The translations under genes and the position numbers were made by a program. A DNA stretch of 38,856 nucleotides, taken from positions 1 through 38,856 of the forward strand of contig CAZIVY010000249.1 in assembly GCA_964542505.1 (NCBI GenBank), in the 5' to 3' direction. This document shows, one piece after another, positions 24,011-38,856 of the stretch. Each line of letters starts with the position of its first letter. The first letter of the stretch is position 1. Below the pieces are notes generated by a model. It saw only the letters and a list, made by a program, of their open reading frames with translations, was not told the origin of the DNA and ran no database searches. This DNA is from an uncultured Rhodospirillaceae bacterium. Its GTDB lineage: Bacteria > Pseudomonadota > Alphaproteobacteria > Ferrovibrionales > Ferrovibrionaceae.

Positions 24011-24125
24011 GGTGGGTACGCCAATGCGGCGCTTGGTTGGGCGCGAAACAGCGCTACCGTGCTTACCCGGTGATTGCCATGGCACTTTCTGCATGGACGA
24101 AAAATCCAAAAGCCTTTGATATAAT

Positions 24126-24175
24126 TGGCGCACCCGACAAGATTCGAACTTGCGACCTCTGCCTTCGGAGGGCAA
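24126..24175 (-). tRNA. tRNA-Arg(CCG) 3' fragment (anticodon arm to CCA; 5' acceptor and D-arm absent). Probable att site of the island.
   Basis: The minus strand reads TTGCC-CTCCGAA-GGCAG AGGTC GCAAG-TTCGAAT-CTTGT CGGGTGC G CCA. This gives an anticodon stem-loop with CCG, a T-arm and a 3' acceptor. The expected 5' strand GCACCCG and a D-arm are not present upstream (24176-24205 is unrelated sequence). Confidence 0.65.
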
Positions 24176-24322
24176 TAGAGGCGGTTTCCTTTGCCCGCCA
24201 CGATTCGCCGGATACCGCATAAATGCCTTATTTAGGCGACTCTTGCCGCCACGCCCCGACAGGCGTATCTTGCTCGCGTGGTTGCTAGGCGGTTGCTAGC
24301 AACCAAAGCGAAAGGAAACTGC

Positions 24323-25588
24323 ATGAGCGGAACGCGGCGGATCACCAAACGGCTTGTCGATGCCTTGCGGCCCGGCGAAATAGCGTGGGACAGCGACGTA
24401 AGAGGGTTCGGCGTTCGCCGGCAACGCAAGGCGAAGATTTACGTCCTCAAGACACGCATCGGCGGGCGGGCGCGGTGGTTCGCCATCGGCGAGCATGGTG
24501 CGCCCTGGACGCCGGAAATGGCTAGGCGCGAGACGCGGCGCATCCTTGGCGAAGTCGCCGCCGGGCGCGATCCGGCGAAAATCCGCGACGATAAACGCAC
24601 CGCCGGGACGGTGGCCGAGCTGTGCGACGCCTACATGGCCGCCGCCCCTTCGCGGGTGCTCAAGAAATCGGGGCGCCCCAAGAAGCCTTCCACCCTGGCA
24701 ACCGACAAGGGGCGCGTCGAGCGGCATATCAAGCCGCTGTTGGGGCGGTTGCAAGTTGGGGCCGTGACAACCGAGGACGTGCGGCGCTTCCTGGCCGACG
24801 TGGCGGCGGGCAAGACGGCGGCCGACGTGCGGACGGGACCACGGGGCCGCGCCATCGTCGAAGGTGGCGAGGGCACGGCAAGCCGCACCGTTGGGCTTCT
24901 CGGCGGCATCTTTTCCTTTTCGGTCGAAAAGGGCTTGCGCGCCGACAATCCGGTGCGCGGCGTGGCGCGGTTCAAGGACCGCGAAGCCGAGCGTTATCTG
25001 TCGGCTGGCGAACTGGCGCGCCTAGGGCAAGCCCTGGCGGCGGCCGAACGAGCTGGCGAGAATCCGATGGCGGTTGCCGGCGTTCGGCTGCTGATTTTCA
25101 CCGGCGCGCGCAAGTCGGAAATCATGACGGCGCGATGGGATTACGTTGACGGTGAGCATGGCTATCTGCGCTTGCCGGATTCGAAGTCAGGGAAGAAGCT
25201 CTTACCCTTGGGCGCGCCGGCCCTTGACGTGCTGGCGAAGCTCCCGCGCATCGAGGGCAATCCCTACATACTGCCGGGCGAGAAACCGGGGGCGCCCTAT
25301 ACCGGGTTGCCGAAGGCATGGGAGCGCATCCGAGCGCGCGCCAAGCTCGGGGATGCGCGGCTGCACGATTTGAGACATTCGTTCGCCTCGGTCGGCGCGG
25401 CTGCCGGCGACAGCCTGATTATCATCGGCGCGCTACTCGGCCACCGCGACGCCAAGACCACGGCGCGCTACGCGCACTTGAGCAACGATCCAATCAAGGC
25501 CGCGGCAAACCGCATCGCCGGCACCATTGCGGCCACGATGGCTGGCGGCGGCGGCGAGGTTGTGCCGCTGGCGCAACGGCACGGCTGA
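24323..25588 (+). CDS. int: P4-type tyrosine integrase (DUF4102 N-terminal domain plus phage-integrase catalytic domain)
   Basis: Starts at ATG 24323 (AAGGAA upstream): MSGTRRITKRLVDALRPGEIAWDSDVRGFGVRRQ.... The C-terminus has RLHDLRHSFAS...LLGHRDAKTTARYAHL (catalytic R, H-x-x-R, Y). Confidence 0.9.
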   Translation: MSGTRRITKRLVDALRPGEIAWDSDVRGFGVRRQRKAKIYVLKTRIGGRARWFAIGEHGAPWTPEMARRETRRILGEVAAGRDPAKIRDDKRTAGTVAELCDAYMAAAPSRVLKKSGRPKKPSTLATDKGRVERHIKPLLGRLQVGAVTTEDVRRFLADVAAGKTAADVRTGPRGRAIVEGGEGTASRTVGLLGGIFSFSVEKGLRADNPVRGVARFKDREAERYLSAGELARLGQALAAAERAGENPMAVAGVRLLIFTGARKSEIMTARWDYVDGEHGYLRLPDSKSGKKLLPLGAPALDVLAKLPRIEGNPYILPGEKPGAPYTGLPKAWERIRARAKLGDARLHDLRHSFASVGAAAGDSLIIIGALLGHRDAKTTARYAHLSNDPIKAAANRIAGTIAATMAGGGGEVVPLAQRHG

Positions 25589-25618
25589 TTCAGCGCCAGC
25601 GGATGAGTGAGGGAAAAT

Positions 25619-26308
25619 ATGAAACGGATTGCGATTGGATTGTTGCTTGAACTCGCCTCGTGCGCCGCCCTGCCGCCTGATCGGCCGGCCGATCCCACCG
25701 TCATTCGGATTGCGCGGGACACTTGGCAATGGCTGGGCGGTTCCGATGCGACAATGCCCAGGATCATGATGAGCAGTGTTGCGGCGATTAGGCTGCGCAG
25801 CCGCAGCGGGGACGCTCCGGCAATGTACGATTGCGCCAGCACGACCATCTTTTTGCCGACTATGGAATCCCTGGAGCAGGCGCTGACCGAGCGCGGCGCT
25901 GGCGGCTCTGGTTCGTTGCTATTCTCCATCATGGTCGCGCACGAGCTGGCGCATCACCAGCAATGCCTGGATCGGAAGTTGCAGGTAAGCCGGGGCGCTC
26001 ACGATGACTGCATACTCGAAAAGGAAGCGACCACGGTCGAATTGCGTTTTCTCGATGAGTACTGGACCGTAATGCAACGAATAACGGTGGCGTTGAAGCG
26101 GATGCCGGACGATGGGGCGCGACTGGCGGCGATTCGAGAGGCCAGGCGACAGAGCGGGCTGGGCGACCTGTCCGACAGCGGAGCCGCCGAAGCGTTGCGA
26201 GCGCTGCAGGGGGTGCCGGAGGAAGAGTTGTTAAAGCCGGCGAGCGAGTCTTTCCCCGGTATCTACCGCGCCTCGGTCGAAGCGAGGTATCGCGCGCGGG
26301 GGTGTTAG
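25619..26308 (+). CDS. putative lipoprotein with an HExxH zinc-metalloprotease-like motif
   Basis: MKRIAIGLLLELASCAA is a lipobox-like L-A-S-C. An internal MVAHELAHHQQC supplies HExxH. No wider family was recognised by eye. Confidence 0.5.
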   Translation: MKRIAIGLLLELASCAALPPDRPADPTVIRIARDTWQWLGGSDATMPRIMMSSVAAIRLRSRSGDAPAMYDCASTTIFLPTMESLEQALTERGAGGSGSLLFSIMVAHELAHHQQCLDRKLQVSRGAHDDCILEKEATTVELRFLDEYWTVMQRITVALKRMPDDGARLAAIREARRQSGLGDLSDSGAAEALRALQGVPEEELLKPASESFPGIYRASVEARYRARGC

Positions 26309-26470
26309 CCGCCTGCCGCTCGCGGGCCGAAGGCGGCGAGGTTGTCTTGATGCCGAGGCGGGGGACGTAATCGAACCGGCGCGGCTAGGCCGACGGGCCG
26401 AACGCCGGGCACCGCACCCGGTTGCCGCGCCGACACTTCCTTGCGGATTCGCTCGCGTTGCGGAGGCGCC

Positions 26471-27004
26471 ATGCCTAAACCGGCTTACAAGGGCAAACTC
26501 GCGCAACCTTGGCGGCGACAAGAAGCGGATCGAGATCGGCTCCTTGCCGACATCCGTGAGAGAATCCGCTTGCTGTTCGTTCACTACGGGATATCGCCGC
26601 CCGATCCGGGAAAAGACCCACACTACTCCACCAACAATCCTTGGGTGCTTCTGGCGGTAAGCCTGGCGAGGGAGCATGTCCCAGGGCTGCACGTGTTAAG
26701 GGCAGGCCGCCCGGAGAGCACGGCAACAACCGCCGCCGCCAAGGCGCGACAAATCCTCGTCGCGCTCGTCGAATCGAGGCGCGGGAAGCACGGCGGCTCG
26801 ATTACCGATACGTGTCAATATTTTGCCGGGCGAGGGATTGGGAAACTACCCGAATACTATCGGACGAGGGAAAAGTTGAGCACCGACACACTTCGTGCCC
26901 ACGTCGCCCGCGAACGCCGGGAGTTTGCGGAGTGGAAAGCTCGCGTCGAGAGACTCATGCTGGAAGTTTCGGCTAATCGGGGATCGGGGAAGCGAGATAG
27001 ATAA
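26471..27004 (+). CDS. hypothetical protein (island cargo)
   Basis: ORF in the 26441-27004 frame. The ATG at 26471 has GGAGG 4 nt upstream. The codon usage looks coding, and no motif was recognised. Confidence 0.4.
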   Translation: MPKPAYKGKLAQPWRRQEADRDRLLADIRERIRLLFVHYGISPPDPGKDPHYSTNNPWVLLAVSLAREHVPGLHVLRAGRPESTATTAAAKARQILVALVESRRGKHGGSITDTCQYFAGRGIGKLPEYYRTREKLSTDTLRAHVARERREFAEWKARVERLMLEVSANRGSGKRDR

Positions 27005-27100
27005 TTCGGCTTCCGATTCTCTGGCAGATATTAAATCCAACTCCTTTTTTCTATCCGATGGGCGCCCGATATTCGCCCCATCCGCCGCGCGTGCGCGGCC

Positions 27101-27355
27101 TTGCGATGGAGACGACGAGTGCAAACCGATCACCCGCCCACCCGGCAGTCTGCCGGCGAAGTTTTCCTGAACCAGTGCGTCACCGCCGTTTTGCTTGGGC
27201 TTAGCGAGCGAACGCTCGAAAGGTTTCGCTTGGAGGGCAGCGGCCCGGCCTTTCGGAAGTTTGGTAGGCGGGTGCTGTACGCGCGCGCCGACGTGCTCGC
27301 CTGGGCCGACGCGCAGCGGCGCACCAGCACAAGCGATCCCGGCGAGGCCGCCTGA
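27101..27355 (+). CDS. AlpA/MerR-like HTH_17 DNA-binding protein (excisionase/regulator type)
   Basis: The segment VLLGLSERTLERFRLEGSGPAFRKFGRRVLYARADVLAWADAQ matches the AlpA-like pattern. It lies directly upstream of, and overlaps, the ATPase gene. The start is uncertain (TTG 27101 or GTG 27119). Confidence 0.65.
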   Translation: MRWRRRVQTDHPPTRQSAGEVFLNQCVTAVLLGLSERTLERFRLEGSGPAFRKFGRRVLYARADVLAWADAQRRTSTSDPGEAA

Positions 27356-28644
27356 TGGCCGCCGAATCCGACGCGGCCGCAGGGTTGGCCGCCTTCGATA
27401 AATTTTGCGCGGAAGAAAATCGCCTGCGTCCCTTCACTCCGCTAACGCCAGCGCACCGGCCGCGCCAAGCCGAGGACCAGGAGATGGAAGCCGAGGCCGG
27501 CGGCGTCGAAATCATCCGCGCCGACTCCATCAAGGTGGTGGGTATCAGGTGGTTGTGGTCCGGCTGGCTCGCTGCCGGCAAGTTGCACCTGCTGGCCGGC
27601 CAGGCCGGCACCGGAAAGACGACTATCGCGGTGGCGTGGGCGGCGACGATATCACGCGGCGGCTCTTTCCCCGACGGCACCCGCTGCGAGGCGGGATCGA
27701 CGTTGATGTGGTCAGGCGAAGATGACGTGGCGGACTCGCTGGTGCCGCGCTTCATGGCCAACGGTGGGGACGCCAGTAAATTTCATCTCGTCGTTGGCGC
27801 ACGCGACGAAGAAGGCCGGCGGCGTCCGTTCGATCCGGCGACGGACGTTCCCGCCCTGACGGCGGGCGCAAGGGGCGTGCCCGATCTGCGGCTGGTGATC
27901 GTCGATCCGGTAGTGCTGGCGGTTGCCGGCGACAGCCACAAGAATGCGGAAGTCCGGCGTGGCCTTCAACCCCTTGTCGATCTGGCGGCGGCGCTTGGCG
28001 TGGCGGTGCTGGGCATCACCCACTACAGCAAGAACACTTCCGGGCGCGATCCGCTAGAGCGCGTCACCGGCTCCCTGGCGTTCGGCGCCCTGGCGCGCGT
28101 CGTCCTGGGCACGGCAAAGCCCGCCAAGGATGGCCCGCCGCGCCGCCTGGTCCGCGTGAAGTCGAATGTCGGCCCCGATGGCGGCGGCTTCGAATATGAG
28201 CTTGTGCAACACGCTCTACGAGGCGCCGGCGGCCTATTCGGCCAGGCTGTTGTCTGGGGCGACGCCCTGGAAGGTTCCGCCCGCGACTTGTTCGCCGAGA
28301 TCGAGGCGCGCGAAGGCGACGAAGCGCCGGCCAGATCCGGCGCCGAAAGCTGGCTGCGCGACAGGTTGGCCAGCGGGCCGATGGACTCGGTGAAAGTCAA
28401 GATGGACGCCGAGGGCGCCGGCCTGTCGTGGGCCACCGTCCGACGGGCGCAAAAGGCGCTGGGGGTTGTCACCACCAAGGACGGGATGGAGGGGGGCTGG
28501 CGGTGGCGCTTGCCGCCGAAGGTGCTCACCGCCGCCGAAGATGCTCACCACGAAGGGGTGAGCGCCTTCGGGAAATCCGCCATTTCTAGCCCGGCCTTGA
28601 GCACCTTCGAGAAAGACGATTCCGGCGACGTGGAGGAGTTCTGA
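27355..28644 (+). CDS. RepA-like AAA_25 / RecA-fold ATPase (island replication/helicase-loader type)
   Basis: 429-aa ORF with Walker A LLAGQAGTGKTT, Walker B LRLVIVDPV, and THYSKNTSGRDPLERVTGSLAF, all typical of AAA_25 proteins found beside AlpA in integrative islands. Confidence 0.78.
   Translation: MAAESDAAAGLAAFDKFCAEENRLRPFTPLTPAHRPRQAEDQEMEAEAGGVEIIRADSIKVVGIRWLWSGWLAAGKLHLLAGQAGTGKTTIAVAWAATISRGGSFPDGTRCEAGSTLMWSGEDDVADSLVPRFMANGGDASKFHLVVGARDEEGRRRPFDPATDVPALTAGARGVPDLRLVIVDPVVLAVAGDSHKNAEVRRGLQPLVDLAAALGVAVLGITHYSKNTSGRDPLERVTGSLAFGALARVVLGTAKPAKDGPPRRLVRVKSNVGPDGGGFEYELVQHALRGAGGLFGQAVVWGDALEGSARDLFAEIEAREGDEAPARSGAESWLRDRLASGPMDSVKVKMDAEGAGLSWATVRRAQKALGVVTTKDGMEGGWRWRLPPKVLTAAEDAHHEGVSAFGKSAISSPALSTFEKDDSGDVEEF
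28516..28571. repeat. iteron-like cluster 1: three copies of CCGAAG-NN-GCTCACC (two direct, one inverted)
   Basis: 28516-28530 ccgaaggtgctcacc; 28535-28549 ccgaagatgctcacc; 28557-28571 ggtgagcgccttcgg (reverse complement ccgaaggcgctcacc). Confidence 0.6.
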
Positions 28645-28645
28645 C

Positions 28646-29308
28646 ATGCCGGCGTCGGCGTTGCTGACCGATTTGACCCGAGCGGGTTTTACCATCCAGG
28701 CCGACGGCGGGCGGCTGGTAGTCGGCCCCGCAAGCAAACTGACGGACGAAACGCGCCAGGTCATCCGGCTGCACAAGGCCGAATTGCTGGCAGAGATAAC
28801 CGCCAGGGTGTCGTCACCGAAGCTGCTCACCGGGGCCGAAGATGCTCATCGAAATGGTGTGAGCGCCTTCGAGAAAAGCGAGCATCTTCGGGCGGAGCGC
28901 GACCGGTACGAGGAACGCACCGCCACCACCGAGTTGCGGGAGCCGCCGCACGCCAGCCCGCTGGCGCAATGGCGCGCCGGCATTGCCCGCCTGTCCCCCG
29001 CGTCGCCGCCTGTCGGCTTCACGCCCCGGCGGTGGGCCGAGGTGCTGGCCGACGCCAATCGCTTCCTGGCGCGATGGGGCGGGCAGGCCGAGGCTTTGGG
29101 CTGGGAGACGTTGGACTTGTTCGCCGTCGACCCGCGCGCCCCGGACGCCCGTTACGACAGCATGGGGCTGGTGGTGGTGTTGGACGGCAGCGAGGTGATC
29201 GCTATCGCGCCTGACCAGGCGAAGGTGCGTACCAGCACGGGCAAGGTGCAGACCTTCTACCTCAGCCCGCGCGTGGAGGCGGTGGCGGTCTGGGAGTTGG
29301 GACTGTGA
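28646..29308 (+). CDS. hypothetical protein with a TubC_N-like N-terminal module
   Basis: The N-terminus LLTDLTRAGFTIQADGGRLVVGPASKLTDETRQVIRLHKAELLAEI resembles the small docking-type domain common in island/plasmid replication modules. It starts 1 nt after the ATPase stop. Confidence 0.45.
   Translation: MPASALLTDLTRAGFTIQADGGRLVVGPASKLTDETRQVIRLHKAELLAEITARVSSPKLLTGAEDAHRNGVSAFEKSEHLRAERDRYEERTATTELREPPHASPLAQWRAGIARLSPASPPVGFTPRRWAEVLADANRFLARWGGQAEALGWETLDLFAVDPRAPDARYDSMGLVVVLDGSEVIAIAPDQAKVRTSTGKVQTFYLSPRVEAVAVWELGL
28817..28891. repeat. iteron-like cluster 2: four copies of the same 15-bp motif (two direct, two inverted)
   Basis: 28817-28831 ccgaagctgctcacc; 28836-28850 ccgaagatgctcatc; 28856-28871 ggtgtgagcgccttcg (inverted); 28878-28891 gcgagcatcttcgg (inverted). 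Confidence 0.6.
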
Positions 29309-29383
29309 CGCCCGAGGAATTGTGGGAGGCGAGGCCCCCTCCACCGTCTGGCGGCCGTTCCTCTTCAAAGCGGTACCAACTGG

Positions 29384-31438
29384 CTAGTGTTCCTCTCCGA
29401 ATAGGCAAGTGCCCATGATCCGCGGGCCATCTGGGCTGCTTGCGGCAAAGAGCAGGAGAGGAACCTTTGGGTGCCAGGCGGGGTCCCATTCGTCGTCAAG
29501 TGAGGTCGTTATTTGGACTATGCTGGACGGCTGTTCTGTTCGGGTGACATAGACGTCCCAGTTGCCCTTCGCCTTCGACGCAAACGCAATCCAATTGCCA
29601 TCGGGAGACACAGCGGGGTCCCATTCGTCGGCAGGCGAGCCATAGAATAAATCTGGCAATTCCGAGCCGTGAGCAAGCCTGAAAATATCAAAGTTTCCGT
29701 TCTTGTTTGAGATGAAATAGACAGACTTGTCTGGCGCAATGGCGGGGCGCCACTCCTCCCATGGCGTGTCAGTCATCTTTGCGAGACGTTGGGTTGTCGA
29801 ATGCAGGCGATATAGATCAGGCGGCTGCCGCGAGGAGGTATTTGCGCCCGCAAATACAATCTCTTCTCCGGATACCGCAGGGATAGAGCCGCTTATGCCC
29901 TTGTCACCGAATAGCATCTCGCGGGTCGCGAACGATGGCCACTGCCGAGCCATCAGGCGCTCAATGCTTCTGGGATTTTGCTTGTCGAATCCCTGACCAA
30001 AGACAATTTCGAAAGTGTCGCTTGAGGATGAAAGGAACGCTGGGTGACGCTCGCTCGCTGTCACAACTTCTGGTGACAAGTCTATCACTTCGCGCCTCAC
30101 CGAATCGTATGCCCTTATTCGATCGCGACCACCCTTCCAAGTCTGGAAGAGCAACCATCTGCCATTGTCCGGCGAAAGACTCGGATACCGGCCTGATTCG
30201 GCAAGGAGCTGCCTAACAGGCGCCGATGCGACTTCCGTGGCTGCCAGTTTGCAACGCGAAGCCATATCAGGAGGGCTCAAGATGCCGGTTTCTATCGCCT
30301 TGGTCTGGAGCGTCGCTCCCAGCAGTGGCGCAAGATGCTCTGCAACAATATGGCCAATGGCCGTTGAGCCGCGATTGTTGAAATGAATATTGTCTTTTAA
30401 GAATGCCCACGATTTCGGCGCAGGCAGAGCCGCGTCGAGGTCGATCAGCACCGATTTTGTTTCAGCGGCAACACGCCTGATGGACTCATTGAATACGGCT
30501 TGCGGCTCGGATGCGACTCCAAGGGGTTGGGTCATGAGTGCTGGTTGCATGTCGTAGGCGCGGGCGATGCTCACAAATATCCGCAGGTTCCGCTCGAAGA
30601 GCAAGCGATGCTCGTCAAAGTTCGGGTCTGGAAAGTTAATATTTGACTCCCCTACAGAAACTCCAACTGTTTCGCCAGTCCATGCGTTGAATCTCGCGAC
30701 TGCATTACGCGCGAGAAATAAGATGTTACTTCGATAGGACACGTAATCCCACGAGGAATGCATCAGGCCGCGAGCTGACGCGAATACTGCAGCGCTAGAC
30801 ACGGGGGGGTCGGTTCCAAGACGTCCGGTATAGTTGCCCTGAATGGCAAGGCGCAGGCGGTCATTGATGTTTTCCATCAGCACAGCGACGGACGCATCAA
30901 GTAATCCCGGCCGGTTGAGCAACGCGTTGATGTTGTCCTGCGTAGTGTGGCCGCGAACCCCGGCATTGAGGGTCCGGACGCGGACGCCTGCGGAATTGAG
31001 GGCAGACCCTACAACTGCCGGAAACCGGAACGCCTCATCGACCTCATTTGACTCCGTTGTAGATCCGCCAAGGAAGAGAATCTTTGTCGCTGCATCGGAA
31101 TCATTGTTGGATTTGATGTATCCCAGATCATCAGTTCGAAACATCCTTGGCGCATGCCGCGAGAGCGTGCCAGCCGCATCACGGTCTCCGGGCAGAAACT
31201 CGTGTCGGATCGACGGGGCAAGGTTCAATGTCGTTGTGCGGAAGTATGCCGCTTCTTCTCGGAATTTGCGCGATTCCTCGCGGATAATTCCGGTTTCCCC
31301 AATCCGGCCAGCAGCGAAATCGAGTGTTACGAACGCCGTCGCGAGAATAGCCAGGATTGCCAAGGAGCCTAGAATTCTAATTCTATTAGATGCCACACTT
31401 GCACGCCTAGCCCACTCGTTTCTCATGTTGCGCGCCAA
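29384..31438 (-). CDS. membrane-anchored SGNH/GDSL-type hydrolase fused to a TolB-like (PD40/WD40-like) beta-propeller; fifth gene of the hxs operon
   Basis: 684-aa ORF with one N-terminal TM (ILGSLAILAILATAFVTL). SGNH blocks: ILFLGGSTTE (block I Ser), ENIND (block III), DNIHFN (block V D-x-x-H). The C-terminal repeats SLSPDNGRWLLF, PAIAPDKSVYFISNKNGNFDIFRL, PAVSPDGNWIAFASKAKGNWDVYV and DEWDPAWHP are typical of TolB-type propellers. It starts 8 nt after the hxsC stop. Confidence 0.7.
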   Translation of the reverse strand: MARNMRNEWARRASVASNRIRILGSLAILAILATAFVTLDFAAGRIGETGIIREESRKFREEAAYFRTTTLNLAPSIRHEFLPGDRDAAGTLSRHAPRMFRTDDLGYIKSNNDSDAATKILFLGGSTTESNEVDEAFRFPAVVGSALNSAGVRVRTLNAGVRGHTTQDNINALLNRPGLLDASVAVLMENINDRLRLAIQGNYTGRLGTDPPVSSAAVFASARGLMHSSWDYVSYRSNILFLARNAVARFNAWTGETVGVSVGESNINFPDPNFDEHRLLFERNLRIFVSIARAYDMQPALMTQPLGVASEPQAVFNESIRRVAAETKSVLIDLDAALPAPKSWAFLKDNIHFNNRGSTAIGHIVAEHLAPLLGATLQTKAIETGILSPPDMASRCKLAATEVASAPVRQLLAESGRYPSLSPDNGRWLLFQTWKGGRDRIRAYDSVRREVIDLSPEVVTASERHPAFLSSSSDTFEIVFGQGFDKQNPRSIERLMARQWPSFATREMLFGDKGISGSIPAVSGEEIVFAGANTSSRQPPDLYRLHSTTQRLAKMTDTPWEEWRPAIAPDKSVYFISNKNGNFDIFRLAHGSELPDLFYGSPADEWDPAVSPDGNWIAFASKAKGNWDVYVTRTEQPSSIVQITTSLDDEWDPAWHPKVPLLLFAASSPDGPRIMGTCLFGEEH

Positions 31439-31446
31439 TTGGCAGA

Positions 31447-32667
31447 TCAGTTCGCGGCAGCGCTTACGAAAGGCCGAATATGCGAACTATAACGCACCTT
31501 TGCAGACGAGAAAAACCCGCCGCAGTTTTCCCTCTCAGCGCAACCGGCGCACTCAGGCATGTGTTCGTTTTTCCAATCGCTTATCGAGCGCCGCGCAAAG
31601 GTCCACAAACGGCGATCGAGCACACAAAGTTGATGATTGTAAATTGACACATGGAGATGATGATCGGCCAGCGTTGTAGCAGCCCTGTATAGTTCGCGCT
31701 GATAGTCGAAGGGATCAATCCAGAGGTCTGGGAGATTTGCTTTTGTGAATCCCATCATCTCCAAACCCATAAGCGCCACGTGATCCACGAAAATCAGATT
31801 GCGTGCGATGAAATCAGCCAGTTGCGGAAGCCGTTCATAGGTCTGCTTGTGAACGACTACGCGTATTTCGACCTTCTGTCGATGGCGCTTTAGATTGAGG
31901 ATGCCTCGAATAGTCTCGTCATACGCTCCATCCGCCTGGACAACGTAGTCGTGGACGGTCGAAAGATCGGAATAGAGCGGGATTCCCATCATCAAGTCCG
32001 GGTGCTCGACGCTCGCGACCTTTTTGGCCAAGCTCGCATCTGAGAAATTGCGGCCATTGGAAAGTACGTGAACCGCCGTATTAGGCAGGTAGTTCTTTGC
32101 GAGCCGCAGGAGATCAATAAAACGGTCGCCGAGCAATGTCGGTTCGCCGCCTGTGAATCCAATCTCGCGGGTCGCGGGATCAATAAGCGGAATTGCTTCC
32201 GAAATTTCGTCAACAATCCACGAATCCTGTACATCTCGCGGCGGCTGCGAACACATAAGGCAATACGAATTACAGCGCTCCGTCACAAGAAAACTGTTGT
32301 GTGGCGAGTTGCGACGATAGAGGACACGAATTGTTCCGTCCCTCTGATCGAATCCTAAAACGTCACCGTCGCCAAGGTACTGGTAATCATCAGGCAATAC
32401 GACTGCCGAAGCTCCTTCTGGCGGTGTACCTACAAAGCCCGAGTTACGAAGATAGACATAGAGAGAGAATCCATCCGGTGCGACACCACTGTTGACCAAG
32501 AACGCTTCTCGCGCTTTGAGCGGAGCCGGCCGGAGCGGGTTTGTTGTCAGTCGGACAACGAATCGGCCACGGTCCGTTGGCACATTGAGGAATTCAAGCC
32601 CGCCGCTGCGCAGTTTCAGCATGCTACCGCCTAACCCAGCCAAGGAAGACGCGGCGCACTTCTTCAT
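31447..32667 (-). CDS. hxsC: His-Xaa-Ser system radical SAM maturase (HxsC-type)
   Basis: 406-aa ORF with the radical SAM motif ERCNSYCLMC (CX3CX2C) and a C-terminal Cys cluster PECAGCAERENCGG. It lies in an operon with the HxS-repeat precursor. The start is uncertain: 32667 overlaps hxsB by 44 nt, while the alternative ATG at 32622 lies 1 nt after the hxsB stop. Confidence 0.78.
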   Translation of the reverse strand: MKKCAASSLAGLGGSMLKLRSGGLEFLNVPTDRGRFVVRLTTNPLRPAPLKAREAFLVNSGVAPDGFSLYVYLRNSGFVGTPPEGASAVVLPDDYQYLGDGDVLGFDQRDGTIRVLYRRNSPHNSFLVTERCNSYCLMCSQPPRDVQDSWIVDEISEAIPLIDPATREIGFTGGEPTLLGDRFIDLLRLAKNYLPNTAVHVLSNGRNFSDASLAKKVASVEHPDLMMGIPLYSDLSTVHDYVVQADGAYDETIRGILNLKRHRQKVEIRVVVHKQTYERLPQLADFIARNLIFVDHVALMGLEMMGFTKANLPDLWIDPFDYQRELYRAATTLADHHLHVSIYNHQLCVLDRRLWTFARRSISDWKNEHMPECAGCAERENCGGFFSSAKVRYSSHIRPFVSAAAN

Positions 32668-34117
32668 CCTGCCGCATCAGCGTGATTAGGTGCCGGAAGA
32701 TTGCCATGTTCCGATTGCAAAAGTCCGACAGCGGCTTACGGCCAACGAAGTCGCCCCAAGTGGCGTGGTGGAACACAGGATCGGCACCACAATATGGTTC
32801 GAACGCGCACTCGGAGCACATTGGCGCCGACCCCGCGAAAGACGCTTCTAGCGGATCGAGCAGTGCATCAGACAGGAAGATGGATTCGTAGCTGTCCGAG
32901 TGGACATTGCCAAGGCGAAACGTCTTATCGCCCATTTCTGCCAACATTCGGCCTTCGTCTGCTGCATACACGTCGCCATCGTAGTTGTAAACAACTGCAG
33001 CGATGCCGATCCCGGACGGACTCGTTAAATCGACGTAGCCCGCATCGAAGGGCGTCAGCATCTTAGTTAGGATCGTGGCGGCATAGTGCTCCGGGAAGAA
33101 GTACCCGCCGCGATTCAATTCGATTATGTAATTGAGTCCCTCCTTGTAGAAGCGCAGCCACTTTTCCGCGTCATACGCCGCATGCATCTTCGTCTTGATG
33201 GCGAAGCCATACGGCGAGAGTGGCCGCAAAAAGATGCCTTCTAGCCCCTGTGCCACGTACTCATCGATTATTTCGCGGACACGATCCAAACTACGCGCCG
33301 TCGTAGTCATGAGTGCACCTACTCGATCACGCCCAAGCATGGCGCGCGCTCGGTTGATGCCGGCAATCGTTCGGTCGTAACTATCGCCGCCGGGCCGTGG
33401 GCGGTTCTTGTTGTGCAAATCGCGCGGACCATCCAGCGATGTCGATATAAGGATGTTGTGCTCACGGCAAAACGAAAGAATTTCATTCGTGATAAGCGCG
33501 AGGTTCGATGTGATGACAAATTCCAGGGCGCGTTTCGCCGTCTCGTTTACGCGCTTCGCCTCTATGACGACGTGTCGGATCAAGTCGAAATTTAGTAATG
33601 GCTCGCCGCCTTGGAATTCGATCTTGAGGTGTGGCGATGGTGAACGAAACACGAGCTCCAATGCCTTGTCCGCAGTCTCGAGTGTCATATCGAAAGCGAC
33701 CTTATCGCTGCTTCGTCGCGATACTTGGCAGTAGCCGCACGAATGTTCGCATCGCAATGAAACAACGAACATGTGCAAGCCAGTGAAGTCCGCTAACCGC
33801 TTTAGCTTCGTCCTGACTTTCAGCGCCAAGAGATCGGCCGCAATGTCTGAGTCGCCATCTGTGAGAAAGTGCTTCGCCTTCAAGTCGCCGAACCATGCAG
33901 AGGACGTCGGCAACTGATGGCGAACGAATGAGGCAAGGGTGGTTCTATCTAGGACGACAAACTCACCGGCCTGATTGGTGGCGACGTAATCGTTTTCATC
34001 GAGTCGTGTGAACCGGAAGGGCAGAAGCTTGTAGCCGTCAGCTAGCGGAGCTTCGAAATGGTCCAGCGAGAGAAATCTACCGGTCATCTCCCTGGAGACC
34101 TGTCCTAGAGAAGGCAT
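32624..34117 (-). CDS. hxsB: His-Xaa-Ser system radical SAM/SPASM maturase (HxsB-type)
   Basis: 497-aa ORF with the radical SAM motif LRCEHSCGYC (CX3CX2C) and a C-terminal SPASM-like cluster APMCSECAFEPYCGADP...FCNRN. The B-versus-C naming rests on size and SPASM content recalled from the TIGRFAM definitions. Alternative start at 34087. Confidence 0.78.
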   Translation of the reverse strand: MPSLGQVSREMTGRFLSLDHFEAPLADGYKLLPFRFTRLDENDYVATNQAGEFVVLDRTTLASFVRHQLPTSSAWFGDLKAKHFLTDGDSDIAADLLALKVRTKLKRLADFTGLHMFVVSLRCEHSCGYCQVSRRSSDKVAFDMTLETADKALELVFRSPSPHLKIEFQGGEPLLNFDLIRHVVIEAKRVNETAKRALEFVITSNLALITNEILSFCREHNILISTSLDGPRDLHNKNRPRPGGDSYDRTIAGINRARAMLGRDRVGALMTTTARSLDRVREIIDEYVAQGLEGIFLRPLSPYGFAIKTKMHAAYDAEKWLRFYKEGLNYIIELNRGGYFFPEHYAATILTKMLTPFDAGYVDLTSPSGIGIAAVVYNYDGDVYAADEGRMLAEMGDKTFRLGNVHSDSYESIFLSDALLDPLEASFAGSAPMCSECAFEPYCGADPVFHHATWGDFVGRKPLSDFCNRNMAIFRHLITLMRQDEEVRRVFLGWVRR

Positions 34118-34415
34118 AGGCTAAGATGGCGTTACGCGCAGCCTCGGTTTCTCGCGCAACAGTGCGCCGCAAGTCCTGGTCTAGTACTTCATTGCGAAAC
34201 TCGTTGACAACGCGCTCAACCGTTTCCGCATCCTTGCCCGGAAGAACTGTGACGGTACAAGAAATTTCGGCGTCCGATATGGAGAAGTCGAACGCCGCAA
34301 GATTGGTCAACCGATAGGCAGCTTTTTTTACCGTTTCGAGGTCGTAGACCTTTGTCGAAAACGAAACTATTGCAGAAGCTCCTGCGACGGCCCGCCCATC
34401 GGCCACGTTCGTCAC
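34077..34415 (-). CDS. hxsD: His-Xaa-Ser system protein HxsD-type (small accessory protein)
   Basis: 112-aa ORF between the precursor and the maturases. The GTG start overlaps the hxsA stop (GTGA). The C-terminal NEVLDQDLRRTVARETEAARNAILAYAFS resembles what I recall of HxsD. Confidence 0.65.
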   Translation of the reverse strand: MTNVADGRAVAGASAIVSFSTKVYDLETVKKAAYRLTNLAAFDFSISDAEISCTVTVLPGKDAETVERVVNEFRNEVLDQDLRRTVARETEAARNAILAYAFSRTGLQGDDR

Positions 34416-34690
34416 TGACTGGACGAATAGTGCGAATAGTGGCTTGAGTGCGACTGATGCGACTGATGCGACATATGCGAACGGTGGTACGTGGTTTGGA
34501 TCGGCGACCCGTCGCTCCGTTCCAAGACGAATTCATCAACCAATTGTCCGTTCCCAGTTAAGGCCGACTCCGCTTGTACCGCCTGTGTCGTCTCGGGAAT
34601 CACTGATGCGCTGGACGTTCCCAACGCAAGCGACAAGAGCGCTGCCACCGAAACCGCCAATGGTGAAAGAAATGGACGCTTCTTACCCAC
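34412..34690 (-). CDS. hxsA: His-Xaa-Ser repeat precursor protein (HxsA-type) with an N-terminal signal peptide
   Basis: 92 aa. MGKKRPFLSPLAVSVAALLSLALGTSSASV is a Sec-type signal. The C-terminus is Y-HRS-HMS-HQS-HQS-HSS-HYS-HYS-SSQ. GTG start at 34690 with AGGAGG 6 nt upstream. Confidence 0.85.
   Translation of the reverse strand: MGKKRPFLSPLAVSVAALLSLALGTSSASVIPETTQAVQAESALTGNGQLVDEFVLERSDGSPIQTTYHRSHMSHQSHQSHSSHYSHYSSSQ
34424..34486 (-). repeat. seven tandem 9-nt (His-Xaa-Ser) coding repeats
   Basis: Codon-by-codon reading of the minus strand gives CAC/CAT-NNN-TCG/AGC x7. On the plus strand this appears as cga-nnn-gtg/atg periodicity (e.g. gactgatgc gactgatgc gacatatgc). Confidence 0.85.
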
Positions 34691-34735
34691 GTCGTTCCTC
34701 CTTTTTCACTTGCTTCCTGAGCACGGTTTTCAAGT

Positions 34736-35470
34736 ATGTACTATATTGATGAGTCAAACAAGCAAGAGGCTCAATTGCACCGACTACATAGGCCGCAAGT
34801 CCTAGTAGGCCCGTTCTTGATACTCGCATTGGCGAGCTTCTTGACGCTCCCTGCAACGAATGTTCTTGCTCACGGTGGTGGCCTTGACGGCCTAGGTTGC
34901 CACCACGACCGGAAGGTCGGCGGCTACCATTGCCACCGAGGCGCGTTGGCCGGCCAGTCCTTCGCCTCCAAAGTCGAAGCCGAGCGGGCACTCCGAGGCG
35001 CACGAGAAGCGCCGCCGCAAGCGATGCCAGCCCCAACTCGACCGGCGCCGGCAACAGCCGAGATCGCGGGCCAGGCCTCCGTGATTGATGGCGATACCAT
35101 TGAAATCCACGGCCGGCGCATCCGCCTGCACGGAATCGACGCCCCCGAGAGCGGGCAGGACTGCAAGGCTGGCGGCCAGACCTATCGGTGCGGCCAGAAG
35201 GCTGCCGTGGCGTTGGCGGACAAGATTGGGCGCCAGACCGTCAGTTGCGACCAGCGCGACACCGACAGGTATGGCCGGGCCGTAGCAGTGTGCAGGATCG
35301 GGGCGGAAGACCTAAGCGCATGGCTGGCGCTCGAAGGCTGGGCGCTCGCCTACCGGGAATACTCAAGAGATTACATTTGGGCCGAGGATGCGGCGAAGAA
35401 AGCCGGGAAGGGGGTATGGGCCGGCGAGTTCGAGGCGCCGTGGGACTGGCGAAAGAAGAAACAGCGATGA
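34736..35470 (+). CDS. secreted thermonuclease (SNase-like) with an N-terminal His/Cys-rich YHYH-like motif
   Basis: ASVIDGDTIEIHGRRIRLHGIDAPE...DRYGRAVAVC...EGWALAYREY are staphylococcal-nuclease-family motifs. Upstream lie HGGGLDGLGCHHDRKVGGYHCH and a hydrophobic signal (VLVGPFLILALASFLTLPATNVLA). The likely true start is TTG 34775, with AAGAGG 5 nt upstream. Confidence 0.78.
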   Translation: MYYIDESNKQEAQLHRLHRPQVLVGPFLILALASFLTLPATNVLAHGGGLDGLGCHHDRKVGGYHCHRGALAGQSFASKVEAERALRGAREAPPQAMPAPTRPAPATAEIAGQASVIDGDTIEIHGRRIRLHGIDAPESGQDCKAGGQTYRCGQKAAVALADKIGRQTVSCDQRDTDRYGRAVAVCRIGAEDLSAWLALEGWALAYREYSRDYIWAEDAAKKAGKGVWAGEFEAPWDWRKKKQR

Positions 35471-35667
35471 TCCGCGAGAAGGACATCTATCGCTCGGCCA
35501 AGCTGATGATAGACCGGCGCGGCGACGACGCGCCCCTGTTCGCCGCGATGCGCGCCGACGAGCTACTGGCGAAAGGTGATATCGAGGGCCAATCCGCATG
35601 GAAGCGCATCCTGCGCGCCATAGACGAGTTGCAGCGTGGCAGGAAGCTACATGAAGGCGTGCAGTAG
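35467..35667 (+). CDS. small conserved hypothetical protein (66 aa)
   Basis: The ATG overlaps the nuclease stop (ATGA). MIREKDIYRSAKLMIDRRGDDAPLFAAMRADELLAKGDIEGQSAWKRILRAIDEL resembles a small helical protein family common in alphaproteobacteria. Confidence 0.5.
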   Translation: MIREKDIYRSAKLMIDRRGDDAPLFAAMRADELLAKGDIEGQSAWKRILRAIDELQRGRKLHEGVQ

Positions 35668-35683
35668 GGCGCAAAGGCGAGGT

Positions 35684-35992
35684 TTACGCCGGCCGGTGCT
35701 CGATCAGGGAAGCTGCGCCGCCGTTCCCCCTGGTTTCGACCAGCGCCGACCCGTGGCAGGCGGCGCCAAAAGCCAGGTGAAGGACCGCCGTCTCCTGCCG
35801 CGCCACGATTTCTGTCGGTATCAGTCGTGCCGCGATCCGGTAGAACTCAGTCGGGTTTTCCCGCGCCCAGGCGGCGAACGCGGCGTGGCCACCGACAGCC
35901 TCAAAGGCGAGGAGAACCGCGTGCCGGAAACTGCGGGTGAACTTGTTCGGCGTGCCCCTCTGTCTGCCGCCGGTCTTGATTCCTCGTGCCAT
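35684..35992 (-). CDS. phage-like hypothetical protein (basic N-terminus)
   Basis: The N-terminus MARGIKTGGRQRGTPNKFT is typical of small phage proteins often found near terminase genes. Confidence 0.4.
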   Translation of the reverse strand: MARGIKTGGRQRGTPNKFTRSFRHAVLLAFEAVGGHAAFAAWARENPTEFYRIAARLIPTEIVARQETAVLHLAFGAACHGSALVETRGNGGAASLIEHRPA

Positions 35993-36071
35993 CGAAATGC
36001 CCGCGCGCCGTCTCTTTGAGTCTATTATAGAGCGTCACGTTAGCGATTGCTAACCTTGGGCGTCCAGCAGG

Positions 36072-36992
36072 ATGCGCATCAACCTCGTAGTCGCCGTCAC
36101 CGATGATGATTGGTTCGAGATGCTTCGTCGGCATCCGAACCTCAGCGAGGTCAACTTCTGGGCACCTTCAGCGGCGAATTTCCGCGCGCTCCAGCCCGGC
36201 GAGATGTTTCTGTTCAAGCTACATGCGCCCCGCAATGTGATCGTTGGCGGCGGGATATTCGCCCATGCCAATGTGCTGCCCTGCTCCCTCGCCTGGGCAG
36301 CGTTCGGCGAAGCGAACGGCGCGCGTTCGGCGCAGGAGATGCGTGTGCGCATTGGCCGTTATCGCAGAACCGGTGAGAGCGACCGGGGCGACTTTGCGAT
36401 CGGTTGCCGCATCCTGACCCAGCCCTTCTTCTTCGAGGAACCCGATTGGATTCCCGTGCCGCCAGGCTGGTCACCGAACATCGTATCTTTCAAGACCTAC
36501 AACACAGGCAATGCTGACGGTTTTGATCTGTGGGAAGCGGTCAACGATCGCCTGAACCGGCACCTCGGTCCGGGGATGCCCGAGGCCAGCGAGCGATTTG
36601 GAGAGCCGCACCTTATCCGGCCCCGGCTCGGACAAGGCGCATTCCGCGTGCTGGTTACAGACATCTACCTTCGGCGCTGCGCGGTCACGCAGGAGCGGAC
36701 GCTGCCAGCTCTCGAAGCGGCGCATATCCGTCCGTATAGCGATGGTGGTGAGCACGAGGCTCGGAATGGGCTCTTGCTACGGCGCGATATTCATAGCCTG
36801 TTCGACGCCGGCTATGTGACGGTTACGCCCGACCTTCGCTTCGAGGTTAGCCGGCGGATTCGGGAAGAGTTTGAGAACGGCAAACACTATTACGCCCTTC
36901 ACGGTCAACGAATCAGCGCGCCGGCGGAAATCGGCCAACGTCCTGATCCAAACGCCCTGACCTGGCACAACGATCATTGTTTTAGGGGATGA
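36072..36992 (+). CDS. HNH endonuclease (HNH_2/PF13391-like) with a PUA/EVE-like N-terminal domain
   Basis: The C-terminal LGQGAFRVLVTDIYLRRCAVTQERTLPALEAAHIRPYSDGGEHEARNGLLLRRDIHSLFDAGYV is the PF13391-type HNH signature. The N-terminal 180 aa (FWAPSAANFRALQPGEMFLFKLHAPRNVIVGGGIF) looks PUA-like. That domain call is inference. Confidence 0.78.
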   Translation: MRINLVVAVTDDDWFEMLRRHPNLSEVNFWAPSAANFRALQPGEMFLFKLHAPRNVIVGGGIFAHANVLPCSLAWAAFGEANGARSAQEMRVRIGRYRRTGESDRGDFAIGCRILTQPFFFEEPDWIPVPPGWSPNIVSFKTYNTGNADGFDLWEAVNDRLNRHLGPGMPEASERFGEPHLIRPRLGQGAFRVLVTDIYLRRCAVTQERTLPALEAAHIRPYSDGGEHEARNGLLLRRDIHSLFDAGYVTVTPDLRFEVSRRIREEFENGKHYYALHGQRISAPAEIGQRPDPNALTWHNDHCFRG

Positions 36993-36995
36993 TCG

Positions 36996-37931
36996 GTGGC
37001 GCCTATGACAGATGGCGACCGGGACGCCTTGATGCGCATGGCGGCCGTCGAGCATGTGCGAAGGTTGGGCGAGGTTCACGATCACCTGACCGCCACCGAG
37101 TTGAAGCCCGGCTTCTATTTCGAGGGTGAGCGAATACCGCTCATCAATCCACAGCGCGGCATCTTCAAGCCAAAGCAGATGCGGTTCTTGCTTTCGATCA
37201 GGACCGTCTTTCCGAAGCCGGGCGGCAAGGTCTGGTATGACGATCAGCGCGAGGTGCATCGCCAGATTTTTGAGGGCGACGAGTCGATCGACTACGCCTT
37301 TATGGGCAAGGACCCCGATGCCGCTGATAACCGCTGGCTTCGCGAGGCGTTTGAGAAGCGGATACCGATCATCTATTTCCTCGGAATTGCGCCGGGCCGC
37401 TACCAAGCCATGCTTCCGGCCTTCATTTCCGGGTGGGACGCCAAGGCGTTAATGGCGCGGGTCGCGTTCGGAGTGCCCGGTCAAGAGGCGCTGGCGCCGC
37501 CCGAGAATGCCTTGGAACGGCGTTACGCCCTGCGCGCAGTCAAGCAACGGCTGCATCAGGCGTCGTTCCGCGAAGCCGTCATCACCGCCTATAATGGCCG
37601 TTGCGCGCTGTCGGGCCTGCCTGAGCCGATGCTGTTGGACGCCGCCCACATCGTTGCGGACACGGACGAGCGGCTCGGACAGCCAGTGGTGCCCAACGGC
37701 ATCCCATTGTCGAAAATCCATCACGCCGCCTTCGATGCCCACCTGATCGGCATCGACCCTGACTATCGGCTGCATGTGTCCGAGCGGCTGCTCGGGCGGA
37801 ATGATGGCCCGATGCTCGAAGCCCTGAAACAGTTGAAGGGCGGAACCATCCATTTGCCGAACCGCCCCAAGGACTGTCCGGATCGAGACCGGCTCGCCTT
37901 GCGCTTCGAGCGCTTCAAGGCGGCGGCGTGA
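36996..37931 (+). CDS. HNH endonuclease (HNH_2/PF13391-like) with a different, SRA-like N-terminal domain
   Basis: The C-terminal FREAVITAYNGRCALSGLPEPMLLDAAHIVADTDERLGQPVVPNGIPLSKIHHAAFDAHLIGI is a second PF13391-type HNH. The N-terminus (RGIFKPKQM...SIRTVFPKPGGKVWYDDQ...IPIIYFLGIAPGRY) is unrelated to that of the upstream gene. It starts 3 nt after the upstream stop. Confidence 0.78.
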   Translation: MAPMTDGDRDALMRMAAVEHVRRLGEVHDHLTATELKPGFYFEGERIPLINPQRGIFKPKQMRFLLSIRTVFPKPGGKVWYDDQREVHRQIFEGDESIDYAFMGKDPDAADNRWLREAFEKRIPIIYFLGIAPGRYQAMLPAFISGWDAKALMARVAFGVPGQEALAPPENALERRYALRAVKQRLHQASFREAVITAYNGRCALSGLPEPMLLDAAHIVADTDERLGQPVVPNGIPLSKIHHAAFDAHLIGIDPDYRLHVSERLLGRNDGPMLEALKQLKGGTIHLPNRPKDCPDRDRLALRFERFKAAA

Positions 37932-38197
37932 GACGCCCTTCTTCGCCCGCGCAATCGGCATCGACTATTCGGGCACTGAGTTGCCGATATGAGTGTCCGC
38001 GAAGAGAACACGATTTGCCGAATACCCCCTGCACAGCGCGTGTTGCCGTACCCGTCGGGTTCCCTAATCGGCCCCCGACCTGCCGTTCGATACCCCGGCC
38101 CTCATTTCCGGCTGGCATAGGCCGTCAGCGCCGCCGCGTGCCCGCCAGGCCGCGAAATCGCGCCGCTTGCCACCGGGGGGGCGCCAGGCCCGTTAGA

Positions 38198-38668
38198 TCA
38201 GGCGTCGAACCCGGCGCGTCCAATGCGCCGTCGGATAAACCCCGCGACATATGCATCGCCGCCGGCAATCCGCTGAATCAACGCTTCGTCGTCGAGTTCG
38301 TCGGCCGGATGCAGGACAAGGTGATCCCTGAGCAGGCCGTGGACTTGCGCCCGGATGCGCTGAAGCGCGGCGACTGCCGTATGATTGCCAGCCTCCTTCG
38401 CCGCCTCGTAATCGGCCAATAGATCGGCCAGGAACCGCCCAACGGAGTCCATCGAGGAAATTCTCGCCGCATCGACAAAGGCGCGGACTGTTAGCATCAC
38501 GTTACCCCGCTTGGCGAACCGGCACGCCGCCACCCGGAGCGCTTCCGGGGTCCAATTCTTGCGCTTGGTGAAGACCTGCCGATAGGCGTCGGTGTAGGTC
38601 CAGCCTGTGGAAACAAGCGTGGCAAACTTGCGCTCGCGGGATTCCATGCTGGCTTTGGCGTAAGTCAT
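38198..38668 (-). CDS. phage terminase small-subunit-like protein (tentative)
   Basis: The ATG at 38668 has GGGAGA 9 nt upstream. The N-terminus ...RERKFATLVSTGWTYTDAYRQVF...ALRVAACRFAKRGNV fits the HTH pattern of small terminases. The track ORF start at 38743 is less likely. Confidence 0.4.
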   Translation of the reverse strand: MTYAKASMESRERKFATLVSTGWTYTDAYRQVFTKRKNWTPEALRVAACRFAKRGNVMLTVRAFVDAARISSMDSVGRFLADLLADYEAAKEAGNHTAVAALQRIRAQVHGLLRDHLVLHPADELDDEALIQRIAGGDAYVAGFIRRRIGRAGFDA

Positions 38669-38856
38669 GGCCGAAAATCTCCCACAGCAGCCAAAATCCC
38701 GCCTGGTTTTCGCGTGCCCCGCAATGAGATTGCCCCCGCTCACGCGCGAAGCCGCCAGGGGGGCTGGCCTGTCTCGTCCGGCGCGGGATCGCGGGGCTTG
38801 CTTGCGCCGCTCAACCCGCCGTCACTCCGTCCGGTAGCGCGCGGGCTTGCAAAAGA

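Follow-up and report, generated by a model that had tools for sequence, protein, structure and literature searches.

The stretch of DNA analysed here (the window) is the 38,856-nucleotide (nt) contig CAZIVY010000249.1 of assembly GCA_964542505.1, from an uncultured Rhodospirillaceae bacterium, and at positions 29384-34690 it carries a His-Xaa-Ser (HXS) operon composed of five minus-strand genes that we name hxsA, hxsD, hxsB, hxsC and, for the fifth gene, X5. The HXS system is known as a kind, but the form in the window, with a short effector, the gene order A-D-B-C and an undescribed, dedicated X5 protein, is new. Our preferred reading, to which we give a probability of about 60%, is that the locus is a defence-island HXS-type system in which a periplasmic peptide would act against phage DNA and X5 would be a periplasmic accessory acting on that peptide. 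An earlier interpretation made from the letters of the window (the sequence-only reading) had reported the five genes with their coordinates and lengths, and all were confirmed. It regarded the fifth gene as an extra; the gene is indeed present, but a survey of gene neighbourhoods reveals a recurrent accessory that is found almost only with Hxs genes, which is beyond a mere extra. That reading also missed that the precursor type (a short, anchor-less, HxsA2-like protein) and the gene order differ from those of the characterised HxsA system.

The HXS system was defined bioinformatically by Haft and Basu, as cited in PMC9062424, and was described in the sequence-only reading as having no demonstrated chemistry or biological role. 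That description no longer holds: Li et al., in a 2026 paper in Nat Commun (PMC13128918) that also has a bioRxiv preprint, reported that the E. coli hxsD-B-C-A genes, all four of which are required, protect against 110 of 113 coliphages and block DNA entry. The E. coli HxsA protein is a periplasmic effector of 214 amino acids (aa) with a signal peptide, five copies of the His-Xaa-Ser (HxS) repeat and a peptidoglycan-binding domain needed for defence; its processing depends on the radical S-adenosylmethionine (rSAM) clusters of HxsB and HxsC, HxsC associates with HxsD in a complex, and a +8 Da change (+C −4H) maps to SHRSS in the last repeat (PMC13128918). A biological role and a partially characterised product are therefore known, which by the terms of the sequence-only reading itself refutes it in part, and the metal-binding peptide, signal or toxin proposed in the sequence-only reading is now less likely than phage defence. 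More than 99.8% of the systems surveyed in the same paper have four genes and 99.6% have the order D-B-C-A, and it makes no mention of an SGNH, TolB-like or HxsA2-type component (PMC13128918).

The X5 protein consists of an N-terminal membrane anchor (residues ~22-44), an SGNH hydrolase domain (~115-375) and a propeller (~405-684). The assignment of the fifth gene as an SGNH-hydrolase/β-propeller protein held up in Pfam, where Lipase_GDSL_2 (PF13472) scores 39.5 bits against a gathering score of 32.9 and PD40 is also above its gathering score. NCBIfam contains no model for X5 and gave only sub-threshold TolB matches, and we found no paper or family model in which the protein is described. A protein search returned 151 matches at E ≤ 1e-5, mostly 640-690 aa in length and with the same domain set, and some members of the family match the ALGX and acyltransferase-3-associated SGNH models of Pfam. 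The catalytic set, formed by S126 (GGSTTE), G160, N192 (NIND) and D349 with H352 (DxxH), is invariant in 40 of 40 aligned sequences, and an N-terminal hydrophobic or transmembrane helix is present in 39 of them. C396 and C678 are both present in 39 of the 40 sequences and both absent from the other; the pairing fits a disulfide and hence an extracytoplasmic location of X5. The lone sequence lacking both residues is P0072 (locus L009), from a metagenome-assembled genome (MAG) labelled Lactobacillales, and the joint loss fits a disulfide that is dispensable in that lineage. X5 is thus predicted to be an intact periplasmic SGNH enzyme anchored in the inner membrane, with a topology read from its sequence.

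An AlphaFold2 (AF2) model of X5, with a predicted local distance difference test (pLDDT) score of 89.8, exhibits a long N-terminal helix, the SGNH domain and the β-propeller, and places a long helical insertion (residues ~200-295) within the SGNH domain. For the propeller (Foldseek E = 1e-14, profile E = 4e-26), the top PDB matches are TolB, among them structures of it bound to Pal or to disordered colicin peptides, and S9 peptidase propellers; the SGNH domain matches generic GDSL esterases and the PDB search detected no structural analogue of the whole protein. X5 has all four sequence blocks of the SGNH/GDSL esterases and acyltransferases, such as those resembling lysophospholipase L1/TesA, but is unlike other such enzymes in its helical insertion and its fusion to a propeller. 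The C-terminal domain shares the PD40 propeller fold with TolB, which binds Pal and disordered colicin peptides, and with the S9 peptidases, in which the propeller gates peptides to the hydrolase domain. Unlike TolB, X5 lacks the N-terminal, TolA-binding domain; the likeness is at the level of the fold only. Its propeller is fused to an SGNH hydrolase and not to an α/β-hydrolase peptidase domain, and the protein is membrane anchored. We rejected X5 as a TolB orthologue, its score with the TolB equivalog model TIGR02800 being 43.5 bits, from the propeller blades only, against a cutoff of 343.

The genomic distribution of X5 ties it to HXS. Eighteen distinct X5 homologues adjoin hxs genes, the one exception being encoded on a 5.7-kb contig. 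All six homologues sampled from protein databases, at 31-100% identity and including two SGNH-only forms, are encoded beside twin rSAM and HxsD genes. In contigs from one genome per species there are 13 X5 relatives, 12 of which have hxs genes within ~2.5 kb: the 11 with enough flanking sequence all have hxsB and hxsC within that distance together with an open reading frame (ORF) encoding HxS repeats and mostly hxsD, the twelfth is on a truncated contig with hxsC immediately upstream, and the thirteenth is on the 5.7-kb contig. The hosts are Reyranella, Hyphomicrobiales, Rhodospirillaceae, an alphaproteobacterial single-cell genome, Limnohabitans (three), Neopusillimonas, Oxalobacteraceae (two contigs of one MAG), Burkholderiaceae, a Nitrospinota MAG and the MAG labelled Lactobacillales. 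Placement of X5 varies: the gene may follow hxsC on the same strand, diverge from hxsA, or lie upstream. In the single-cell genome (L010 12422-13877), hxsB is split into two overlapping ORFs of 300 and 212 aa by a frameshift or an assembly error. At another locus (L103 5354-9158), two shorter rSAM genes (390 and 343 aa) precede an SGNH-only X5 homologue of 385 aa that lacks the propeller. No HxS-repeat ORF was detectable nearby, so that L103 may represent yet another variant, whose precursor would be of another type.

The reverse association does not hold. A comparison set of 80 metagenomic loci (L023-L102), with HxsB proteins 53-73% identical to that of the window, includes only three with X5, and three of about 23 (about 13%) when at least 2.5 kb is available on both sides. 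X5 was absent from all 72,556 plasmids of PLSDB, though hundreds carry HxsB, including the closest plasmid relative, Mesorhizobium pWSM4875 (64.5% HxsB identity), and none was found in viral contigs. In a neighbour-joining tree of HxsB, the loci with X5 fall at five or more separate places, and confirmed X5-negative loci lie between them. The linkage to Hxs, the patchy presence and the scattered positions in the tree together indicate that X5 occurs almost only with Hxs, that it is optional, and that it has been repeatedly gained or lost.

The HxsA precursor of the window, read directly from its ORF, is composed of the signal peptide MGKKRPFLSPLAVSVAALLSLALGTSSA, a leader (SV…TTY), the repeats HRSHMSHQSHQSHSSHYSHYS and the tail SSQ. 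The signal peptide is of the Sec type, with MGKKRP, a hydrophobic stretch and a terminal SSA before the first S of the leader. The leader is 40 residues long and acidic, with six Asp/Glu and one Arg, and contains the class motif DEFVLER…. The seven contiguous repeats are HRS HMS HQS HQS HSS HYS HYS, so that the array ends in SHYSS (…SHYSHYSSSQ); the C terminus lies three residues past the repeats, and the protein has neither a Pfam match nor a peptidoglycan-binding domain. The export signal, the seven repeats and the absence of Cys from the repeat region noted in the sequence-only reading are all borne out by the sequence, and the precursor as a whole is free of Cys. That reading also matched the A/D/B/C set to the HxsA-D families: HxsB, HxsC and HxsD pass, but the precursor falls below every HxsA cutoff, with 34.8 bits against 48 for HxsA2 (NF038296), 27.3 against 55 for HxsA4 and 21 against 121.65 for HxsA (TIGR03979). 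The best of these models is HxsA2, aligned over positions 2-95 of 96. NCBIfam HxsA2 is a short repeat protein known from comparative genomics, and the window HxsA resembles it in its length (~90-100 aa), signal peptide and C-terminal HxS repeats. Five short precursors encoded at other X5 loci score 52-89 bits with HxsA2 and so pass it. Because the window precursor scores below the HxsA2 cutoff that related short precursors pass, it is best placed by sequence as a divergent relative of the short HxsA2-like class and not as an HxsA2 member by the NCBI criterion.

A total of 62 distinct short precursors encoded adjacent to D-B-C share a leader motif of approximately (F/L)VL(K/E)R…G…(M/L)A(Y) immediately ahead of the repeats, and have 5-7 repeats followed by a tail of 2-3 residues. 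At position -2 before the repeats the window precursor has Thr, whereas 47 of the 62 have Ala. The relatives end in SHYSS or SHRSS, and an array ending H[YR]S-S, which corresponds to the SHRSS site modified in E. coli, was found at 18 of 18 X5-positive loci against 5 of 21 confirmed X5-negative loci (Fisher p = 1e-6, kinship ignored). Long HxsA forms also accompany X5 (L001 and L008), and that of L008 has a peptidoglycan-binding domain and passes TIGR03979; we therefore rejected the replacement of a missing peptidoglycan anchor as the sole role of X5.

The three maturation proteins pass the curated cutoffs of NCBIfam: HxsB scores 630 bits with TIGR03978 (cutoff 370), HxsC 406.5 bits with TIGR03977 (cutoff 267.9) and HxsD 60.3 bits with TIGR03976 (cutoff 50). 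The Cys motifs of both rSAM enzymes are as previously read and are conserved in homologues; they are CEHSCGYC and CSECAFEPYC in HxsB, and CNSYCLMC and CAGCAERENC in HxsC. Among 14 HxsB homologues, C123/C127/C130 and C434/C437/C443/C467 are invariant. The SPASM-like cluster claimed for HxsB stands on its motif and on NCBIfam matches that relate HxsB to SPASM peptide maturases, but the Pfam SPASM model itself gave no match, and we describe the C-terminal cluster as SPASM/twitch-like. Pairwise BLASTP of the window HxsD against the Hymenobacter HxsD gave no alignment, HxsD being too divergent for pairwise comparison, though its profile passes. PADLOC (2023), which is without HXS models, gave only weak pVip matches for HxsB and HxsC; a viperin-like reading of the two enzymes was rejected because such matches reflect the shared rSAM fold.

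Comparison with the E. coli and Klebsiella systems reveals a shared core and a divergent effector. The systems have in common HxsD, two rSAM enzymes with the same Cys motifs, a location on mobile DNA, and an effector in which signal peptide and leader precede tandem HxS repeats that end SH[R/Y]SS. The window HxsB and HxsC are 33% and 36% identical, respectively, to those of the D-B-C-A version encoded on a Klebsiella plasmid, and the CX3CX2C and CX2CX5C motifs of HxsC are aligned. In the Klebsiella HxsA, signal peptide and leader are followed by HRSHSSHRSHSSHRSS and then by a Ser-rich linker and the peptidoglycan-binding domain; the window HxsA matches only the first ~75 residues of that protein and has neither the linker nor the binding domain, and is 92 aa in length compared with 212-214 aa in E. 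coli and Klebsiella. The window repeats number seven with one Arg, as opposed to five with three Arg. The gene order is A-D-B-C-X5 in the window and D-B-C-A in E. coli and Klebsiella, which lack X5. A short hxsA followed by hxsD, hxsB and hxsC is the usual order in the HxsB clade of the window, as in the 80 metagenomic loci and also in L020 and L021; the published figures for gene order thus appear to reflect a dataset dominated by enterobacterial (Klebsiella, Escherichia) genomes.

We propose that HxsB, HxsC and HxsD would modify the repeat core in the cytoplasm, that the HxsA precursor would then be exported through Sec, and that the His/Ser-rich product would stop incoming phage DNA in the periplasm. 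X5 would be anchored in the inner membrane, its catalytic part facing the periplasm. There the propeller would most likely bind the HxS peptide in its modified, disordered state, and the SGNH site may hydrolyse or transfer an ester-type group on it, in a step of post-export tailoring, activation or tethering. An antiphage function is suggested for this distant variant by homologues of 33-36% identity and by its nuclease and integrase context; the substrate and chemistry given for X5 are putative. The betaproteobacterial X5 loci carry a three-gene module encoding an SxtJ-like protein (PF19588), a DUF5989 protein and an O-carbamoyltransferase (PF02543/PF16861), located between hxsC and X5 or upstream of hxsA (L004 5507-7989; L013 7523-9936; L014, L016, L017, L012, L036, L047 and L049) and present in all three X5-positive metagenomic loci, which hints at carbamoylation chemistry linked to the SGNH enzyme. 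A more specific scenario, which we advance tentatively, is that X5 is part of a two-compartment maturation route: the cytoplasmic rSAM enzymes, perhaps with the O-carbamoyltransferase in the Betaproteobacteria, would act first, and after export the membrane-anchored SGNH esterase would take hold of the peptide by its TolB-like propeller and remove or transfer an ester or carbamate, activating the peptide or tethering it at the face of the inner membrane where phage DNA enters.

Several points weigh against our preferred reading. The antiphage role is extrapolated to a locus whose HxsB and HxsC are only 33-36% identical to those of the Klebsiella plasmid version. The peptidoglycan-binding domain required in E. 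coli is absent from the window effector, so the mechanism may differ, and with only one Arg in the core the model in which basic repeats bind DNA fits less well. About 20 of the 23 related Hxs loci with adequate flanks lack X5; most related systems evidently work without it, which indicates that X5 is not needed for basic maturation, and its occurrence with a peptidoglycan-anchored HxsA means that it is not simply a replacement anchor. The correlation of X5 with the terminal repeat motif is uncorrected for phylogeny. Contact between X5 and HxsA is putative, and X5 could act on peptidoglycan or lipopolysaccharide instead.

An alternative that we consider doubtful is that the short form is a pathway for a ribosomally synthesised and post-translationally modified peptide (RiPP), with a released metallophore, signal or bacteriocin as the product and X5 as a periplasmic enzyme of leader removal or tailoring. 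As in rSAM/SPASM-modified RiPP pathways, a leader-core precursor is encoded beside rSAM maturases, and the 62 short precursors have the classic anatomy of a leader motif directly before a repeated core with a tail of 2-3 residues. Seven His occur in the core of the window precursor, which is without an anchor; HxsB has relatives among the SPASM peptide maturases, the betaproteobacterial forms add the carbamoyltransferase/SxtJ-like/DUF5989 module as possible tailoring enzymes, and propellers of the X5 type gate peptides in S9 peptidases. However, the sole experimental data on the family concern phage defence with the repeats as effector (PMC13128918), and the long, characterised HxsA has the same N-terminal succession of signal peptide, leader and repeats. 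The window locus is found among nucleases in a mobile island and related loci are near Mrr-type and DpnI-type nuclease genes, and the operon contains no exporter, immunity or receptor gene.

It is improbable, in our estimation, that X5 partners Hxs but acts on the envelope, on O-acyl groups of peptidoglycan or lipopolysaccharide or through its propeller on Tol-Pal-like partners, to aid the block of phage entry. Periplasmic SGNH enzymes commonly act on glycans, which agrees with the ALGX and acyltransferase-3-associated SGNH matches of some X5 members; the propeller is closest to that of TolB, which binds Pal at the cell wall, and X5 is encoded beside both short and peptidoglycan-anchored HxsA. 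Nevertheless, a near-exclusive linkage to Hxs across phyla would be unusual for a general envelope enzyme, the presence of X5 tracks a specific C-terminal motif of the precursor, and the TolB equivalog score is far below its cutoff. That X5 is an unrelated neighbour in a gene-dense island, as might be supposed from its absence from most Hxs loci, the closest plasmid relative among them, and from the predominance of four-gene systems in the published survey, is effectively excluded by the neighbourhood survey, in which 18 independent homologues, some as little as 31% identical, adjoin hxs genes in more than one arrangement, and by the position of X5 8-50 nt from hxsC on the same strand together with its absence from plasmids and viral contigs.

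Table 1. Features of the operon and its surroundings, in window coordinates except for the last five rows
Feature	Position	Strand	Remarks
Shine-Dalgarno AAGGAGG	34697..34703	-	strong, consensus; 6 nt 5' of the hxsA GTG start; read from sequence
hxsA-like precursor/effector	34412..34690	-	92 aa; signal peptide, 40-aa acidic leader, seven HxS repeats, tail SSQ
hxsD	34077..34415	-	112 aa; TIGR03976; start overlaps hxsA stop by 4 nt
hxsB, rSAM maturase with SPASM/twitch-like C-terminal cluster	32624..34117	-	longest ORF 497 aa; TIGR03978
hxsC, rSAM enzyme	31447..32667	-	longest ORF 406 aa; TIGR03977
X5, membrane anchor, SGNH/GDSL hydrolase and TolB-like PD40 β-propeller	29384..31438	-	684 aa; from Pfam, alignment and AF2
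Tyrosine integrase	24278-25588	+	island mobility/replication module (24278..28644)
HTH_17 (AlpA-like) protein	27101-27355	+	same module
AAA_25 protein	27355-28644	+	same module
Staphylococcal-nuclease-like (SNase) protein, apparent signal peptide	34736..35470	+	Pfam SNase 53.7 bits; divergent from hxsA, 45-nt gap
HNH_2 endonuclease, first of tandem paralogous pair	36072-36992	+	306 aa; matches PADLOC PDLC04132
HNH_2 endonuclease, second of pair	36996-37931	+	311 aa; 3 nt from the first; matches PADLOC PDLC04132
SNase homologue, L004	10737-11228
SNase homologue, L016	18367-18858
SNase homologue, L098	316-1116
SNase homologue, L024	3275-3969
SNase homologue, L002	10089-10526

The genes of the operon are tightly packed under either of two sets of start codons. 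The probable start of hxsB is Met11 at 34087, which would give a protein of 487 aa, and that of hxsC is Met16 at 32622 (391 aa); alternative starts for X5 are found at 31426 (ATG) and 31396 (GTG). Three identical copies of the island segment are present in public sequencing runs, with gene calls of 487 aa for HxsB, 391 aa for HxsC and 670 aa for X5. The sequence-only reading gave all junctions as overlaps or gaps of 8 nt or less, and was correct as to the tight packing but not as to the figure: the longest ORFs overlap by 41 nt (D/B) and 44 nt (B/C), and by the gene calls on the identical contigs the junctions are an A/D overlap of 4 nt, a D/B overlap of 11 nt, a B/C gap of 1 nt and a C/X5 gap of 50 nt. 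The gap between hxsC and X5 in the window is accordingly 8-50 nt. Promoter and terminator scans over the operon found sites no more numerous than in shuffled sequence.

The sequence-only reading regarded the operon as island cargo, and we agree. Genes of ordinary metabolism, for hydantoinase, a TRAP transporter and thiamine pyrophosphate (TPP) enzymes, fill the left 23 kb of the window, the integrase, HTH_17 and AAA_25 genes are upstream, and the GC content of the operon dips to 0.53-0.56 compared with 0.60-0.70 over most of the rest of the window. The evidence supports the window locus being cargo of an integrase-bearing, low-GC island beside secreted and HNH nucleases, and the integrase/HTH_17/AAA_25 module is linked to X5 and hxsC on independent identical contigs too. 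The integrase module, the SNase, the two HNH nucleases and the GC dip mark a defence island, which is a basis of the phage-defence reading. A search for direct repeats over 20000-38856 gave no convincing attachment (att) sites, and there are no tRNA genes in the window; the island probably continues past the right edge of the window. A 60-nt direct repeat of 83% identity, at 28516-28575 and 28817-28876, encodes PK[VL]LT[AG]AEDAH…GVSAF at the C terminus of the AAA_25 protein and again midway along the 220-aa ORF that comes next, whose N terminus is TubC_N-like.

Seven other distinct loci (L002, L004, L016, L024, L089, L098 and the P0114 locus) have a homologue of the SNase gene close to hxs genes; in those of L002, L004, L016 and L098 a signal peptide was read. 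At L004 the SNase gene is situated between X5 and hxsA. It is possible that the SNase is an accessory of the HXS system, a periplasmic, DNA-degrading partner, and the tandem HNH_2 genes may form a defence element of their own within the island. Neighbours of X5 and Hxs genes elsewhere (L002 484-3459 and 14494-15702; L004 1-4539) include small-terminase genes, a ParB-methyltransferase, Mrr-type and DpnI-type nucleases, an integrase and IS66, and these settings resemble phage-satellite-like or prophage-remnant islands.

To our knowledge, no bacterial system other than HXS has been reported to block the entry of phage DNA. The usual form in environmental Alpha- and Betaproteobacteria is A-D-B-C with an anchor-less effector of ~90 aa, which a model of an anchored DNA trap does not readily explain. 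The recurrence of nucleases with signal peptides beside HXS loci suggests that the arrested DNA may be degraded. A dedicated esterase, predicted to be periplasmic, catalytically intact as judged from its residues and equipped with a propeller of the peptide-binding type, points to an extra step of modification or processing outside the cytoplasm. Should the two-compartment route hold, X5 would become the first enzyme of the SGNH-propeller kind to be given a place in the maturation of a defence effector or RiPP, and would provide a chemical handle on the +8 Da modification. The window variant challenges the published mechanism and, as a small and clonable operon, offers a new experimental handle on it.

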